Part shown: positions 17,595 through 36,665 of the stretch, in pieces | Position numbering within the stretch: position 1 is the stretch's first letter | How the letters are laid out: the number at the start of each line of letters is the position of its first letter | Source: Christensenellaceae bacterium | Lineage (GTDB): Bacteria; Bacillota; Clostridia; Christensenellales; CAG-138 | DNA length: 64,000 nt | Direction: 5' to 3' | Assembly: GCA_963667795.1 (NCBI GenBank) | Contig: OY764017.1 | Coordinates: 645,236 to 709,235 of the forward strand | Notes under the pieces: generated by a model | Told to the model about the DNA's origin: nothing | Databases searched by the model: none | Seen by the model: the letters and a program-made list of their open reading frames with translations, nothing else | Position numbers and translations under genes: made by a program

Positions 17595-17671
17595 TGGCGT
17601 GCCCGAAAGGATTCGAACCTTCGACCCTCAGAGTCGGAGTCCAACGCTCTATCCAGCTGAGCTACGGGCAC
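17595..17671 (-). tRNA. tRNA-Arg (anticodon CCG), CCA encoded
   Basis: Manual cloverleaf: GTGCCCG TA GCTC AGCTGGATA GAGC G TTGGA CTCCGAC TCTGA GGGTC GAAGG TTCGAAT CCTTT CGGGCAC G CCA. The anticodon stem has two G.U pairs. Confidence 0.85.
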
Positions 17672-17939
17672 ATGTATTTTGTTGTCAATTTCTCGCCTGC
17701 GGCCAGCAGTGTCGGAGCCATCTGATTATTTTGTCATAATCGTCCGTGATCTCAAATAGTCGACTTTAATCGCGTATAATCGGTTACTTGAATTTGTTGT
17801 AATGTGCGACAAATTACGTGATCTCGGCAATCTATCGCAACCTCTTGCGGTCATATGTGTCAAAAAATGCGTCAAAAGCAGGTGACTTCTGAAGCGTTAC
17901 AGCCTCAACAACTCCTCGCCAAGAACGCTGACATACACT

Positions 17940-18085
17940 CCCACCCATATAAAATCGTTTAATGGCTGTTTCCGGGACGAATGCCTAAACATGAACTGGT
18001 TCATGTCTCTGGAGGATGCCCGAGACAAAGTAGAGCGCTGGCAGAGGAACTACACATAGTTTCGTCCGCCCAGCGCTTTGTGATA
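17940..18085 (+). pseudogene. Internal remnant of another IS3/IS407-like OrfB
   Basis: Translates FNGCFRDECLNMNWFMSLEDARDKVERWQRNYT*FRPPSAL. This is a diverged duplicate of 15841-15955 and has an in-frame stop. Confidence 0.7.
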
Positions 18086-18125
18086 TTACGATAATGCTAA
18101 ACTTCTACACTCGATTCAGCTTGGT

Positions 18126-18299
18126 TTACATTCCTTTGAGCAGGTTCCCGAGCGCCAGGATCGCAAAAGCAATCAGCGCCCACCACACCGGCGCAAACAG
18201 GAAGCTGAATGGAACCGCCACCATGAGTAAGGCCATAACCGCAATGATGAGCGCGATAAAAAAGGTAATGTTCTTGGGTCTCGATAAATGTAACTGCAT
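18126..18299 (-). CDS. Small membrane protein (57 aa)
   Basis: ATG at 18297-18299 lies 8 nt after AGGAGG. Translates MQLHLSRPKNITFFIALIIAVMALLMVAVPFSFLFAPVWWALIAFAILALGNLLKGM. Below the ORF-track length cutoff. Confidence 0.55.
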   Translation of the reverse strand: MQLHLSRPKNITFFIALIIAVMALLMVAVPFSFLFAPVWWALIAFAILALGNLLKGM

Positions 18300-18407
18300 A
18301 ATAGTTGCCTCCTGAAAATTTAATCTGATTTTGAGGTGTCGACTGCGTAATAAATCGTGTTCGAATGGCCGCAGGTAAAATAATTTACCTCAGAAGCAAT
18401 CTGCTAT

Positions 18408-18830
18408 TCAGCTATTCGAACTCTGTTTTTGCTGTTCGATTTCTTGCTTCTGCTGCGCGTTTTTCAGTTTCTGTTGCTCGTTTTCCAGTTTCTGCCTCTC
18501 GTTCTGTTTCTTCAGTTGCTCGTTTTCCTGCCTCTGTCGATCCGCATTCTCTTGCTTTCCCTGGTCGCTCTCTTTTTTGAGCTGGTCATAATCCTGTTTT
18601 TGCCGTGTGTTATTTGCTTTCGTCTGCTTTGCCAAATCCTTTGCTTCGCGCTCTTGCTTGCTGGTTCTCTTTGCGTAGATCCCGACAATCAAGCCCAGTA
18701 TACCAAGAACGATCTCCCCGATATTCCAGTAGACGGGATTACTCTGAAACATTGGCACCATTCCCGTTATCCCAAGGACACCAATAAAGATGAGCGCCAA
18801 CCCCATCAACACATTCGCTAGTTTTGTCAT
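18408..18830 (-). CDS. Membrane protein with two N-terminal TM segments and a Q/E/K-rich repetitive tail
   Basis: MTKLANVLMGLALIFIGVLGITGMVPMF...GEIVLGILGLIVGIYAKR, followed by ...QENEQLKKQNERQKLENEQQKLKNAQQKQEIEQQKQ. Confidence 0.6.
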   Translation of the reverse strand: MTKLANVLMGLALIFIGVLGITGMVPMFQSNPVYWNIGEIVLGILGLIVGIYAKRTSKQEREAKDLAKQTKANNTRQKQDYDQLKKESDQGKQENADRQRQENEQLKKQNERQKLENEQQKLKNAQQKQEIEQQKQSSNS

Positions 18831-34760: not shown

Positions 34761-34800
34761 AGATTCGTCTCACCGATGTCTGACTTGAGGACCGAATATC

Positions 34801-35241
34801 AGTTCAGAATTGGTTCAAACCTACTACCTGATGTTTATTTGATGTTTATTGCCATCAATAACGGCTTATAATCGTTCATAATCATCAAAAATACATTTTG
34901 AATTATCCGCAAAGATCGGCGATTATCTTCAATTATCGTCGTATAATCACAACTATATTTCGCACAAGTACGCACTCATAACCCGGAGGTCGTAGGATCT
35001 CTTAGTCAATCGTCGACAAAAGGCAATGCTTTGCGGAGCGCTCTCAATAGAATAAATTTTTGACCCCCTCGTGCGTCAAAAATGCGACAAAAATCAAAAT
35101 CGACCTGCGAGCTTACTGCCTCGCAGGTCTTTCTCTATCTACCCTGAATAACGCTTTTTCGTGATTTGTCGCATTGTCGCACGAACTCTAAAACGAGCTA
35201 AAGTTGAACCCCCTAAAAAGTCGCCTACTTAGGGGGGGGTG
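34801..35241. repeat. About 440-bp noncoding repeat module, copy 2
   Basis: Homologous to 17152-17594. Contains a perfect hairpin GACCTGCGAG-CTTACTG-CCTCGCAGGTC and a hairpin CCCCCT...AGGGGGG. It begins 40 bp after the stop of the GGDEF gene. Confidence 0.8.
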
Positions 35242-35249
35242 GCGTGCCC

Positions 35250-36590
35250 GGTACTGCCAAGAATTATGCGCAAAAAGGAACGAGGCCGTAGGGTTGACGT
35301 TCAGCTGACGGCAGATTCGACGTCTGCCTGAATTTCCAGATGCTTCATGTTCATGTACTTCTTGTTCCCCCATTGCGTGCCTGCGACATGTCGCAGGCGT
35401 GCGCAAACCAGCATGAGTGCTGAATTGCCGTCCGGAAATGTACCGACCACCCGCGTTCTGCGACGAATCTCCCGGTTCAACCGTTCGATCACGTTGTTGG
35501 TGCGGATGCGCAGCCAGTGCTCGTATGGGAATTCCATATAGGTCAAAGTCTCCTCAATGCCGTTTTCCACCTTTTTAGCCGCTTCTTTGAGCTTCATAGC
35601 CCGCAGAGCTTCTACAACTTGAACAGCCTTCTCACGGGTGGCAGTTTTGCTCTCCTGTGCATGAATCGCTTTGAGCATTCTGGCCACCAGCTTCATCTTG
35701 CTGCGCGGTGTGGCCGAGAATACATTGCGATAGAAGTGGACGGTGCAACGCTGGTACTTTGCTTGCGGGAACACCTCTGCGGCGGCTTCCAGCATACCGA
35801 GACATTTATCGCCGACGATCAGGCGCACGCCGTCCAGCCCGCGCCCTTTGAGCCATTGCAGGAACGCCGTCCAGCTGGCTTTGTCTTCCTTCATTCCCTC
35901 GGCGGCGCCGATCACCTCGCGGTATCCATCCTCGTTGACGCCTAATGCAACAAGAATACTCACGTTCTCAAACTCGCCGCCCCAATTCCGCCTCAGGTAG
36001 ATCCCGTCCACGTAGACATACGGATATGTTCCGCCGTGCAAAGGCCTGTTGCGCCATGCTTCAATGTGAACGTAAGCTTTCTTGTTTAGCTCGCTGATGG
36101 TGGCGGGAGATACTTTGGTACCCCATAAGGCTTCGATAATATCCTCAACCCGGCGCACCGACACTCCGGCCAGATACATTTCAATCAGAGCTTCCTCAAC
36201 GCTGCTTTCCCGTCGGCGATACCGTTCGATGATCGCTGTTTCAAACGGGATTCCCTTCAGCCGCGGCATTTTCAGCGTCACGTCCCCGCTGGTTGTGGTC
36301 AGATTCCGGTTGTAGTGTCCGCTCCGATATCCCTGCCGGGCTTCGGTTCGCTCATATTTGGCTGCCTGGGTCAGCTCCTGTGCTTCCTTTTCCAGCAGGT
36401 CGTTCAGCGTTTCTTCCACGCTGCCGCGCACCAGTTCTTTCAATTCGTCCTTGATTGCGCCTTCATTTAACTGTATGATTTTCTTGGACATATGGTTAGC
36501 CTCCTTTGTGTGAATGGTTCTTGCAAACCTATTCTATCATTTGGCCTCTATATGTCCTTTTTTAATTTGCGCAACTTATTGTACGTTATC
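35250..36590 (-). mobile_element. Intact IS256-family insertion sequence (1341 bp)
   Basis: 8-bp target duplication GCGTGCCC (35242-35249 and 36591-36598). Ends are GGTACTGCCAAGAATTATGCGCAAAA and the reverse complement of the other end, GATAACGTACAATAAGTTGCGCAAAT. Confidence 0.85.
35301..36491 (-). CDS. IS256-family (Mutator-type) transposase
   Basis: 396 aa: MSKKIIQLNEGAIKDELKELVRGSVEETLNDLLEKEA...VYVDGIYLRRNWGG...RTNNVIERLNREIRRR. Confidence 0.9.
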   Translation of the reverse strand: MSKKIIQLNEGAIKDELKELVRGSVEETLNDLLEKEAQELTQAAKYERTEARQGYRSGHYNRNLTTTSGDVTLKMPRLKGIPFETAIIERYRRRESSVEEALIEMYLAGVSVRRVEDIIEALWGTKVSPATISELNKKAYVHIEAWRNRPLHGGTYPYVYVDGIYLRRNWGGEFENVSILVALGVNEDGYREVIGAAEGMKEDKASWTAFLQWLKGRGLDGVRLIVGDKCLGMLEAAAEVFPQAKYQRCTVHFYRNVFSATPRSKMKLVARMLKAIHAQESKTATREKAVQVVEALRAMKLKEAAKKVENGIEETLTYMEFPYEHWLRIRTNNVIERLNREIRRRTRVVGTFPDGNSALMLVCARLRHVAGTQWGNKKYMNMKHLEIQADVESAVS

Positions 36591-36591
36591 G

Positions 36592-36665
36592 CGTGCCCGG
36601 GAGGATTCGAACCTCTGGCCTTTGGAGTCGGAGTCTGATGCTCTATCCAGTTGAGCTACAGGCAC
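36592..36665 (-). tRNA. tRNA-Arg(CCG)-like copy, probably impaired
   Basis: GTGCCTG TA GCTC AACTGGATA GAGC A TCAGA CTCCGAC TCCAA AGGCC AGAGG TTCGAAT CCTCC CGGGCAC G. There are two mismatches in the anticodon stem, and the IS256 insertion separates the body from its CCA and trailer. Confidence 0.6.

Follow-up and report, generated by a model that had tools for sequence, protein, structure and literature searches.

The window analysed here, a stretch of 64 kb, contains two tRNA-Arg(CCG) genes which, as their sequences strongly support, are the reciprocal products of one crossover between two properly paired variants of this gene. The explanation that we regard as rather probable is that one reciprocal crossover in the anticodon loop inserted a circle of about 17.7 kb, with a tyrosine integrase as the most likely catalyst.

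Two complementary chimeras

The two genes, the intervals to which the exchange maps and the segment between them are as follows.

17595..17671 (or 17598-17671), minus strand: tRNA-Arg(CCG) copy 1, found by ARAGORN and the Rfam tRNA model (59.8 bits)
36591..36665 (or 36592-36665), minus strand: tRNA-Arg(CCG) copy 2, found by ARAGORN and the Rfam tRNA model (50.3 bits)
17631..17641, minus strand: crossover interval of copy 1, the 11-nt run GACTCCGACTC, which is the anticodon loop plus 2 nt on each side
36625..36635, minus strand: crossover interval of copy 2, the same run
17642..36624: segment between the crossover intervals, at present 18,983 bp long and, without the IS256-family element that was inserted later, about 17.65 kb

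Both genes pass the Rfam threshold and align to the covariance model as standard cloverleaves; a different fold had been named as evidence that would tell against the proposal, and the model retains the standard one. They lie in direct orientation with a spacing of 18,994 bp, and the anticodon loop is CTCCGAC in each. The anticodon stem of copy 1 is TTGGA/TCTGA, containing two G.U pairs (U28.G42 and G29.U41), and that of copy 2 is TCAGA/TCCAA, with the mismatches C28.A42 and A29.C41. The first-pass annotation had noticed that exchanging the 3′ halves of these stems restores full pairing, and this was confirmed by ARAGORN, by the Rfam tRNA model and on the sequences themselves. In copy 2 the covariance model flags pair 49-65 as non-standard in addition to 28-42 and 29-41, and A15 is private to this copy. 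Copy 1 encodes CCA and a terminator; copy 2 has lost both, because the IS256-family element separates the downstream flank from the tRNA and occupies the place of the 3′ trailer. Copy 2 is probably impaired.

Parental alleles

The two parents predicted from the swapped stems occur intact elsewhere and the copies are mosaics of them, which bears out the earlier proposal of a reciprocal crossover in the anticodon-loop region. Variant A (anticodon stem TTGGA/TCCAA, T stem AGAGG/CCTCC) is intact in L079 and L012, one an IMG/VR contig and one a GTDB MAG, and variant B (TCAGA/TCTGA, with the compensated T stem GAAGG/CCTTT) is intact in 10 metagenome contigs. The Rfam tRNA model gives A 64.3 bits and B 65.3 bits, more than either chimera. 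Copy 1 is an exact combination of an A 5′ half, identical to that of the intact A genes, and a B 3′ half, identical at 38/38 nt to intact B in seven metagenome contigs. Copy 2 combines a B-like 5′ part, carrying the B markers A26, C28 and A29, with a 3′ half identical to A (L079, L012). Its type of 5′ half occurs in intact B and in the 5′-half remnants of L025/L054; it differs from known B at two positions, and therefore its exact parent was not recovered.

All the 5′-side B markers (26, 28, 29) are in copy 2 and all the 3′-side ones (41, 42, 44, 49, 50, 64, 65) are in copy 1, a distribution that, judged from the alignment, is not a matter of chance. Between A and B, pair 50-64 is compensated and pair 49-65 goes from A.C to G.U; both pairs stay together in copy 1 because they lie wholly 3′ of the loop. 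The 13 differences between the copies are transitions without exception, whereas those in the flanks comprise 36 transitions and 18 transversions (Fisher p=0.014); two functional alleles diverging through G.U intermediates would be expected to leave such a pattern. Relatives that already carry G.U or mismatched stems had been named at the outset as evidence that would tell against the proposal; wobble or mismatch at pairs 28-42/29-41 was found in 0 of 59 relatives.

Flanking modules

The homology between the two sites extends beyond the tRNA genes and can be divided into the following parts.

17672..17717, minus strand: spacer S1 on the upstream side of copy 1, with a remnant L* at its end that resembles an anticodon loop, CTCCGAC (gtcggag on the plus strand, 17711-17717)
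36666..36711, minus strand: spacer S1′, upstream of copy 2, ending in the loop-like remnant CTTCGAC (36705-36711)
17718..17900, minus strand: U arm, upstream of copy 1 and within the segment, with repeated 8-mers TTGACGCA/TTGTCGCA and GATTAT motifs
17356..17594, minus strand: Fp, proximal downstream flank of copy 1, with terminator hairpin and conserved palindrome
17152..17350, minus strand: Fd, distal flank of copy 1, 95% identical to 34817-34998
34801..35250, minus strand: original downstream flank of copy 2, consisting of Fd′ (34801-34998), Fp′ (35000-35241) and the displaced last 9 nt of copy 2 (35242-35250)

Imperfect homology on both sides of both copies had been reported in the first-pass annotation and is real, with about 83% identity upstream (17672-17717 versus 36666-36711, where it stops at the end of S1′) and about 89% downstream (17152-17594 versus 34801-35250). 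At copy 2, however, the downstream part does not adjoin the tRNA, since the 1334-bp IS256-family element, which had been missed, lies between them. Overall, the paired modules are homologous over about 570 nt at 86% identity. A length that had seemed too great for an attachment core is explained by the fact that both partners are copies of a conserved tRNA-Arg module of about 0.6-0.8 kb, which recurs in Christensenellaceae genomes.

S1 with L* is also found upstream of tRNA-Arg in L079, L082, L012 and L032 and in the 5′-half arrays of relatives, and U, tRNA and Fp are contiguous both in L079, which bears A, and in L082, which bears B. On the copy-1 side the flanks go with the tRNA halves: U and S1 are nearest to L079, and Fp is nearer to L082. 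The U arm is 91% identical to L079 (17718-17883, preceding intact A there) and 84% to L082, where it precedes intact B; Fp is about 90% identical to L082 versus 83% to L079. The Fp′ of copy 2 is only marginally informative, at 86% identity to L079 and 87% to L082. The palindrome in Fp consists of CCTGCGAG-N8-CTCGCAGG and is bordered by two copies of TGCGACAA and by TTGTCGCA/TTGACGCA; these 8-mers and the GATTAT motifs are present in U and in Fp/Fd, are conserved across genomes and are candidate arm-type sites. Fd ends in an initiator-tRNA-like anticodon loop with a 3′-half remnant (plus strand, 17327-17365), and its left side is cut by a truncated IS256-like gene.

Cargo and neighbourhood

The segment and the DNA on either side of it contain the following genes and elements.

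19073-20218, minus strand: baeRF gene (Pfam/ORF list)
20454-21017, plus strand: gene for a rubredoxin-like membrane protein (Pfam/ORF list)
22867-31626, minus strand: GH94/glycoamylase (glucan-synthase-like) gene, 2919 aa (Pfam/ORF list)
32208-34760, plus strand: PAS-GGDEF-HD-GYP gene (Pfam/ORF list)
35251..36584, minus strand: IS256-family element, 1334 bp, with transposase at 35301-36491 (Pfam Transposase_mut, 1e-108)
about 14850-16010, plus strand: IS3-family element (three-frame translation)
16024-17151, plus strand: 3′-truncated IS256-like pseudogene abutting Fd (three-frame translation)
36851..64000, minus strand: conjugative-element genes upstream of copy 2 (Pfam)

The segment also carries small stress-type genes, and its cargo resembles ordinary accessory genes of a chromosome. 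In L173, L172 and L174 the GH94 and PAS-GGDEF genes are present without tRNA-Arg, and a 486-kb contig devoid of tRNA shows the two in synteny, which counts against a circular mobile element. The segment together with both tRNA copies was seen in no relative compared, so the universal synteny that had been named as evidence against an insertion was not found.

The IS256-family element is bordered by the 9-bp repeat GCGTGCCCG (35242-35250 and 36591-36599), with six extra nucleotides, GTTATC, beside it at 36585-36590. On the far side of copy 1, the IS3-family element and the IS256-like pseudogene (14850..17151) erase whatever lay past the resident module. Two identical 1251-bp IS copies are located at 9547 and 39074. 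The conjugative-element region encodes a sortase, a SpaA adhesin (cut short at 39073 by an IS), a group II intron, an SNF2-type protein of 1860 aa, YodL, CD1107-like, NlpC/P60, VirB4-like, TrbL and DUF6017 proteins and a VirD4-type coupling protein, the type IV secretion and coupling-protein genes lying at 50-64 kb. A homologous conjugative element is present in L171/L175/L181 at 86-89% nucleotide identity; such related elements have other cargo after the sortase, have no tRNA there and do not end at the sortase.

Integrases and loop junctions in relatives

The first-pass annotation found no integrase in the window, and this was upheld. Pfam scans of ORFs, including PF00589, revealed no recombinase or integrase in the 19-kb segment or in the 64-kb window, and the tyrosine integrase of L065/L077 had no tblastn match in the window. 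Among the ORFs of 17.7-22.9 kb, the short ones of which were read by eye rather than profile-scanned, there was no integrase candidate. An orthologous empty site (V, S1′, intact B, F) was not recovered among the relatives compared, where intact A and intact B occur in other contexts, and no circular junction was found among the sequences compared. The proposal that the two copies are attL and attR of a circular element integrated by a tyrosine integrase thus stands as the most parsimonious reading, but the integrase, the empty site and the circular junction that it predicts were not encountered.

In relatives the same loop is a recurrent junction. Upstream of an intact gene, tRNA 5′ halves ending at CTCCGAC are found in L002, L005, L025, L042, L054, L055 and L057 and in Oscillospiraceae; displaced 3′ halves beginning at the loop are found in L023, L113, L123 and L141. 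In two IMG/VR contigs (L065 and L077) a gene for a 384-aa tyrosine integrase (PF00589) is followed by a promoter and a tRNA-Arg(CCG) 5′ half which stops 3 nt past the loop, and in GTDB there are at least 12 loci where a tyrosine integrase lies no more than about 1 kb from tRNA-Arg(CCG). Cognate enzymes therefore exist in the clade.

How the exchange may have taken place

The run GACTCCGACTC is common to A and B. In the alignment of copies and parents, the last A marker of copy 1 precedes it and the first B marker follows it, and in both copies the switch of markers maps to it, that is, to an anticodon loop flanked by inverted stem arms. A circle could also have been inserted in the same Campbell-type manner by RecA, through homologous recombination between the modules of about 0.57 kb and without a site-specific recombinase. 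The long homology (about 570 nt at 86%) and a window devoid of integrase are in keeping with this, and IS copies and repeats, such as the 1251-bp pair, abound and can generate circles. However, the exchange occurred where the module is most diverged, in a stretch of 11 identical nt, and runs of 36, 32, 30, 21 and 20 identical nt in the flanks were left unused. The loop run makes up 2.2% of the identical positions in the 572-column module alignment, so that its expected share of RecA exchanges is at most 2%, and it has zero weight if a minimal processing segment of at least 12 identical nt is needed. An exchange point in sufficiently long identity, as expected of RecA, was thus not found: 11 nt were used where 20-36 nt were available. 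A site-specific process is preferred because RecA should have resolved in the 30-36-nt runs of the flank, and because the loop is a recurrent junction in relatives with integrase genes adjoining; that many relatives have junctions of independent origin at this loop also points to site specificity. RecA insertion is therefore considered unlikely, and we favour a tyrosine integrase that acted site-specifically and in trans.

It is less probable again that no circle was involved, and that the DNA between two resident B-type modules was replaced from an A-type donor by two crossovers or conversion tracts each ending in a tRNA. The contiguous U, tRNA and Fp of L079 and L082 could represent a conserved locus with recombining alleles, and tRNA genes are conserved anchors between diverged genomes. 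This would, however, require two endpoints to fall independently in one interval of 11 nt, for which uniform placement gives about 0.02 x 0.02, and no relative was seen with two modules around this cargo. An assembly artefact, in which the contig switches at the tRNA between two co-occurring strains, is conceivable for an apparently metagenome-derived chromosome of 3.58 Mb and is very improbable: a strain switch would need a long identical repeat, for which 11 nt do not suffice; it would have to happen reciprocally at two points 19 kb apart; and in copy 2 the IS insertion, with its target duplication, forms a junction of a normal biological kind. Finally, drift of duplicates by point mutation, considered together with strand-biased deamination resembling repeat-induced point mutation (RIP), would account for the all-transition differences, for copy 2 as a pseudogene decaying after the IS took its trailer, and for the swapped-half complementarity as coincidence, but finding A and B intact has in effect refuted it, since the "mutated" halves are identical to halves of real genes, the flanks co-vary with the halves, and the chance that copy 2 changed exactly the partners of the two changed positions of copy 1 is about 1%.

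Insertion through a circle is the most parsimonious history; we infer as follows that a circle was the intermediate, in which direction the event ran and which enzyme acted. A circle of about 17.7 kb would have carried allele A, its parts following one another as U, S1, tRNA A, Fp′, Fd′ and cargo. Allele B would have resided in the chromosome beside the conjugative-element genes, with V, S1′, tRNA B, Fp and Fd in succession. A single exchange within the 11-bp loop segment would integrate the circle, leaving the B5′/A3′ product (copy 2) at one end and the A5′/B3′ product (copy 1) at the other. The compensated pairs 28-42 and 29-41 would thereby be split, giving two G.U pairs in one gene and C.A and A.C in the other. 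The catalyst would most likely have been a tyrosine integrase of the class whose overlap region is the anticodon loop, either provided in trans or lost afterwards, and the result would be a CIME-like, integrase-less island with att-like ends. In a later step the IS256-family element would have been inserted in the 3′ end of copy 2.

Two further observations count against this history. First, both partners bear arm-like flanks, so that the reaction would join two attP-like sites, an unusual substrate pair; second, Fd is 95% identical between the copies versus 85% for Fp, and therefore an extra event, such as gene conversion, is needed. A broader reading, which we hold to be doubtful, is that the unit of about 0.6-0.8 kb (U arm, loop-like core, 39-nt spacer, complete tRNA-Arg(CCG) and Fp with its conserved palindrome) may be a portable attachment-site cassette, for which chromosomes, conjugative elements and a virus-like contig would serve as vehicles in Christensenellaceae, and that a trans-acting integrase may move integrase-less islands between any two copies through the loop-like core or the tRNA loop. 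If so, the window would show a cassette within a conjugative element capturing a 17.7-kb circle of chromosomal cargo.

Comparison with known systems

The closest counterparts are the islands of Islander class "A", which have anticodon-centred att sites and tyrosine integrases (2083 islands, 159 with a displaced 5′ fragment; PMC4383910). As in that class, tRNA sequence in direct repeats bounds the insert, the crossover lies in the anticodon loop between inverted stem arms, and in the clade tRNA-Arg(CCG) is a hot spot of integration, next to which relatives have integrase genes. Unlike in that class, a full-length tRNA is present at each end instead of a gene and a fragment, and the partners had diverged, so that both products are visibly chimeric and compensatory pairs are split. 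Islander requires an integrase and rejects matches inside full-length tRNA genes (PMC4383910); its filters would discard the present island, which has no integrase.

Cis-mobilizable elements (CIMEs) and their tandem accretion with ICEs are defined in PMC5704250, citing the work on ICESt1/ICESt3 of Streptococcus thermophilus. The island resembles a CIME in that attL/attR-like ends are kept, integration and transfer genes are absent (Pfam) and conjugative-element genes lie directly beside it. It differs in that no cognate integrase or ICE end was found at the tRNA in the 64-kb window, and mobilization is putative.

In the tRNA-dependent lysogeny of actinobacteriophages (Guerrero-Bustamante and Hatfull 2024, PMC10865867) the short common core leaves the target tRNA unrestored, and the element makes up for this with a complete tRNA of its own. 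The arrangement of host 5′ half, loop, 39-nt spacer and complete tRNA in relatives fits such a short-core attP beside an element-borne tRNA; these 5′-half arrays belong to an event separate from that in the window. The window event itself does not fall into this category, as its crossover lies within the element-borne tRNA and both products are full-length tRNAs; moreover, the host belongs to Clostridia, not Actinobacteria, and phage genes are absent here.

What the finding means

The event in the window is a clean example of a known event type and not a new mechanism. It is a rare footprint that could be fully resolved from sequence alone, including the parental alleles, the reciprocal products and an 11-bp exchange interval. 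Integrase-less islands between two full-length tRNA genes exist, and standard island finders reject them by design. In Christensenellaceae and Oscillospiraceae, tRNA-Arg(CCG) is a heavily used integration site at which the 5′ rather than the 3′ part is replaced, and integration between diverged alleles of such a gene can damage the tRNA by splitting its compensatory pairs.

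Two alleles and their reciprocal mosaics

ARAGORN detects two tRNA genes in the whole window and no others; each is a tRNA-Arg(CCG), and they bound a segment of about 19 kb (17642-36624):

17595-17671, minus strand: tRNA-Arg(CCG), copy 1 (ARAGORN; Rfam tRNA model, 59.8 bits)
36591-36665, minus strand: tRNA-Arg(CCG), copy 2 (ARAGORN; Rfam tRNA model, 50.3 bits)

The anticodon stem-loop reads TTGGA-CTCCGAC-TCTGA in copy 1, with U.G and G.U pairs, and TCAGA-CTCCGAC-TCCAA in copy 2, with C.A and A.C pairs. The first-pass annotation had described two minus-strand genes with these odd stems, and ARAGORN, the Rfam model and the sequences themselves agree with it; covariance scoring, a check it had proposed, leaves both copies in the standard cloverleaf, with non-standard pairs in copy 2 at 28-42 and 29-41 of the anticodon stem and at 49-65 of the T stem. 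Of 74 positions, 13 differ between the copies, in every case by a transition. Copy 1 keeps the encoded CCA and a terminator hairpin, and copy 2 lacks both because an IS256-family element of 1334 bp (35251-36584; transposase Pfam E=1e-108) sits within its 3' (acceptor) end. The 9-bp repeat GCGTGCCCG lies on either side of the element; six extra bases, GTTATC, between the element's end and the right repeat are unexplained (insertion 35251-36590).

Relatives were scanned in GTDB, one genome per species, using a pattern without constraint on the anticodon stem. All 59 loci obtained have fully Watson-Crick stems (TTGGA/TCCAA in 33, TCAGA/TCTGA in 16, TTAGA/TCTAA in four, others in six); the window combinations TTGGA/TCTGA and TCAGA/TCCAA occur in none, and the G.U or mismatched stems that, if present in relatives, would speak against an exchange are likewise absent from all 59. 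The closest relatives, Christensenellaceae MAGs with the T stem AGAGG/CCTCC, all have TTGGA/TCCAA. Joining the 5' part of copy 1 to the 3' part of copy 2 gives a hypothetical parent A (stem TTGGA/TCCAA), which is identical to a real gene in L012 and in the IMG/VR contig L079 (L-numbers denote relatives' loci). For the complementary parent B, which combines the 5' side of copy 2 with the 3' side of copy 1, the prediction was the stem TCAGA/TCTGA, the variable loop GGGTC and the T stem GAAGG/CCTTT. Compared with A, its changes at pairs 28-42, 29-41 and 50-64 are compensated, and pair 49-65 is G.U instead of A.C. Scanning metagenomes for the 3'-side signature of B recovered the intact gene in 10 contigs, as GTGCC[C/T]GTAGCTCAGCTGGATAGAGTATCAGACTCCGACTCTGAGGGTCGAAGGTTCGAATCCTTTC[G/A]GGCACGCCA. 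The 3' half of this gene agrees with copy 1 throughout (38/38 nt), and its 5' half has A26, C28 and A29 as in copy 2, whose private differences from intact B are A15 and C25.

Because intact A and B were both recovered and their halves match, each window gene is one of the reciprocal mosaics formed from two real alleles, which upholds the earlier reading of the swapped halves as the crossover footprint of two diverged tRNAs. The switch maps to GACTCCGACTC, the sole run common to both copies between the A and B markers (17631-17641 in copy 1, 36625-36635 in copy 2). We therefore regard it as very probable that a single exchange in the anticodon loop gave rise to both copies as its reciprocal products. 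Minimum-free-energy folds of the four tRNAs were uninformative, since the predictions were not cloverleaves, and covariance-model scores were used instead; these (A, 64.3 bits; B, 65.3; copies 1 and 2 as listed) fit the chimera picture. Transitions and transversions number 13/0 in the tRNA versus 36/18 in the flanks (p=0.014), which fits alleles diverging under pairing selection. When polarised, the 13 transitions read as C>T changes for copy 1 and as G>A changes for copy 2; independent mutation or strand-biased deamination, like repeat-induced point mutation, was rejected in view of the recovery of intact A and B.

Flanking sequences

Each gene lies in a module, a tRNA-Arg unit of about 0.6-0.8 kb including its flanks. 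We denote the upstream arm and spacer U and S1, the proximal and distal downstream flanks Fp and Fd, and the copy 2 counterparts with primes; V is the sequence beyond S1'.

17718-17900, about 180 nt: U, upstream of copy 1

Homology between the copies extends 46 nt upstream (17672-17717 vs 36666-36711) and about 440 nt downstream (17152-17594 vs 34801-35250). The first-pass annotation had given about 48 bp and about 440 bp around both copies; these extents stand, as does its remark that they far exceed an att core, except that the downstream flank of copy 2 is split off by the IS256-family element. A loop-like remnant precedes S1 in both copies (CTCCGAC at 17711-17717, CTTCGAC at 36705-36711), and there the inter-copy homology stops.

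U is 91% identical to the region before intact A (L079) and 84% to that before intact B (the L082 locus), and S1 of copy 1 matches the L079 spacer at 37 of 39 positions; Fp of copy 1 is about 90% identical to the intact B flank of L082 and 83% to that of L079. Therefore copy 1 is of A lineage on its 5' side and of B lineage on its 3' side, the pattern that a crossover with flank exchange would predict. The signal in the copy 2 flank is weaker (86% to L079, 87% to L082). Between the copies Fd is 95% and Fp 85% identical, a contrast beyond one single event, for which later gene conversion is the simplest patch.

The idea that the downstream flank is a known non-coding RNA was rejected, as it gave no Rfam match in the window at the gathering threshold. 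A palindrome, (G/A)CCTGCGAG-N8-CTCGCAGG(C/T), is conserved at 15 loci and occurs in the window at 17400-17560 and 35045-35205 (both minus strand); its 8-nt centre is variable and one pair covaries. Two copies of TGCGACAA flank it to one side and TTGTCGCA/TTGACGCA to the other, 8-mers that recur in the U arm (17840-17900); the palindrome may be an arm-type protein-binding site or an RNA hairpin. The boundary of Fd and Fp is an initiator-tRNA-like anticodon loop, CTCATAACCC (17327-17365 and about 34976-35010, plus strand), accompanied by the degraded remains of a 3' half on the other strand. In L172 (2960-3010) and L174 (3165-3215), which are 89-93% identical to the PAS-GGDEF region, the distal flank joins a better-kept fMet-type 3' half (CTCATAACCCGGAGGTCGTTGGTTCAAGTCC...ACCA) with no tRNA-Arg after it; L172 gave no tRNA-half match. 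This boundary is a second, older att-type junction, its half having been recognised by eye and unscored by the Rfam model. A truncated IS256-like gene, together with an IS3-family element, cuts off the resident module on its far side; apparent synteny of 14920-15059 with the region after the flank in L005 and L009 was actually an IS3 OrfA fragment.

The probable event and enzyme

Two reciprocal chimeras that face the same way and enclose single-copy DNA are what circle insertion by one crossover leaves behind. The circle would have had the order U - S1 - tRNA A - Fp' - Fd' - cargo, which is found contiguous in L079, and the target V - S1' - tRNA B - Fp - Fd; one crossover in the loop, made by a site-specific integrase, would insert the former into the latter. 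This full scenario we consider moderately probable. The same mosaics could also arise if a pre-existing interior had been swapped by a double crossover or two conversion tracts, which requires two independent endpoints within the same 11-nt interval. RecA-type recombination between the modules would have had ample substrate elsewhere: the module alignment has 494 identical positions in 572 columns, with flank runs of 36, 32, 30, 21 and 20 nt, each longer than the loop run. The loop run contributes 2.2% of the identical positions, and its weight falls to zero if at least 12 identical nt are required for strand pairing. RecA therefore accounts poorly for the exchange position, and a recombinase cutting in the anticodon loop accounts for it well.

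Pfam searches of the plausible window ORFs found no recombinase besides IS transposases and a group II intron reverse transcriptase, and tblastn of the window with the integrases of L065 and L077 (IMG/VR contigs) returned only noise; the window thus lacks an integrase, as had been noted. No empty site and no circular junction came to light.

The same loop as a junction in relatives

The conserved locus consists of a radA-like gene, the promoter TGGTATAAT and the tRNA. The tRNA gene is plain in L009, L045 and L053, and in the Christensenellaceae loci L002, L005, L025, L042, L054, L055 and L057 it is joined by one or two extra tRNA 5' halves, which end at CTCCGAC plus 0-3 nt. Each is followed by a spacer of 39 nt (S1) or 53 nt, the intact gene being last in the series. 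Similar arrays with a 169-nt period are found in Oscillospiraceae (L004, L008, L010, L017, L019, L020, L030, L041, L044, L048 and L049), and head-to-tail tRNA-Arg(CCG) 5' halves also in L091, L108, L117 and others; periods across relatives are 78, 92, 83 or 169 nt. Some remnants differ in allele from the gene behind them, and in L025 and L054 a B-type remnant stands ahead of a non-B gene. These arrays have the appearance of relic displaced 5' fragments, left by elements that replace the gene's 5' part; unequal exchange may have enlarged them.

Displaced 3' halves starting at the loop occur in L023, L113, L123 and L141. In L023 (528-4235; Oscillibacter sp. MSJ-31) a 3.6-kb segment with sigma/anti-sigma and nucleotidyltransferase genes and no integrase runs from an intact tRNA-Arg(CCG) to such a half, and is another integrase-less islet at this loop site. 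Downstream of the tRNA in L057 (6320-6700), there are three tandem units of about 187 nt, in each of which the final 20 nt of the tRNA (TGGCGTGCCTGGGAGGATT) come first and a terminator-like hairpin next; the units resemble either att remnants of the 3' end in several copies or a small repeat that was inserted.

L065 (148 kb; 3079-4440) and L077 (69 kb; 3640-4992) encode a 384-aa tyrosine integrase (PF00589, 4e-22), followed by a sigma-70-type promoter, TTGACA-17-TAATAT, and a tRNA-Arg(CCG) 5' half that ends 3 nt past the anticodon loop. This arrangement is an attP supplying promoter and 5' half and replacing the 5' part of the gene, the minority polarity. A tyrosine integrase lies within about 1 kb of tRNA-Arg(CCG) at at least 12 of the GTDB loci; none was found beside the module in L005, L012, L021, L023, L025, L032, L054, L126 or L151.

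Cargo and neighbouring element

The inserted genes are:

small stress-type gene cluster
baeRF gene
GH94/glycoamylase gene, 2919 aa
PAS-GGDEF-HD-GYP gene

In L173, a metagenome contig of 486 kb, GH94 and PAS-GGDEF keep their synteny with no tRNA, and thus the cargo resembles ordinary accessory chromosome. A compositional contrast with the flanks, proposed earlier as a check, did not appear: the segment is not distinguishable from them. Just upstream of a small dodecin-like ORF of the stress-gene cluster there is a 43-nt tandem duplication in perfect register (21705-21790, 95% identity).

36.8-64 kb, upstream of copy 2: conjugative-element genes (sortase, SpaA adhesin, SNF2-type helicase, YodL, CD1107-like, NlpC/P60, VirB4-like protein, TrbL, VirD4-type coupling protein, DUF6017)

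These genes are interrupted by a group II intron and an IS. In homologous elements (86-89% nucleotide identity) the sortase is followed by type I restriction genes or a sigma-factor/DUF6034 block, with no tRNA. The left flank of the window has a sigma factor and two DUF6034 genes, like those elements, and the resident B module may therefore belong to the accessory region of this conjugative element; the sigma/DUF6034 proteins are not orthologous. L181, with a sortase and then a sigma factor and DUF6034, in which it resembles the two outer flanks of the window, was rejected as an empty site, its proteins not being orthologous and a tRNA being absent.

Two identical (100%) IS3-family copies of 1251 bp in direct orientation (9547-10797 and 39074-40324) bracket 28.3 kb that includes both tRNA copies, the right one truncating the SpaA adhesin gene at 39073. 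The layout resembles a composite transposon and is also a substrate from which deletions or circles can form. The group II intron (41973-44036; domain V/VI, 60.7 bits), with a reverse transcriptase/maturase/HNH ORF at 42081-44036, apparently splits an ORF that continues at 40945-41970. A non-coding repeat of about 430 nt (77-91% identity) lies by the DUF6034 genes (6441-6869 vs 11139-11580, and 4260-4367).

Relation to known systems

The event works like integration at anticodon-centred att sites, of which Islander lists 2083 among 3919 islands, a minority of 159 having a 5' fragment (PMC4383910). As it stands, the island resembles a cis-mobilizable element (CIME), which retains att ends and has lost its integration genes (PMC5704250). 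It is like the tRNA-dependent lysogeny of actinobacteriophages in one respect, that the incoming DNA carries a complete tRNA of the target isotype, but there the target tRNA is not rebuilt (PMC10865867). We do not file it as a standard integrative island, because the family-defining integrase is absent. Its unusual aspects are the following: first, both crossover partners are full-length tRNA genes; second, their divergence is great enough for the exchange to be read base by base; third, one of the product genes shows visible damage; fourth, the module of homology greatly exceeds an att core in length.
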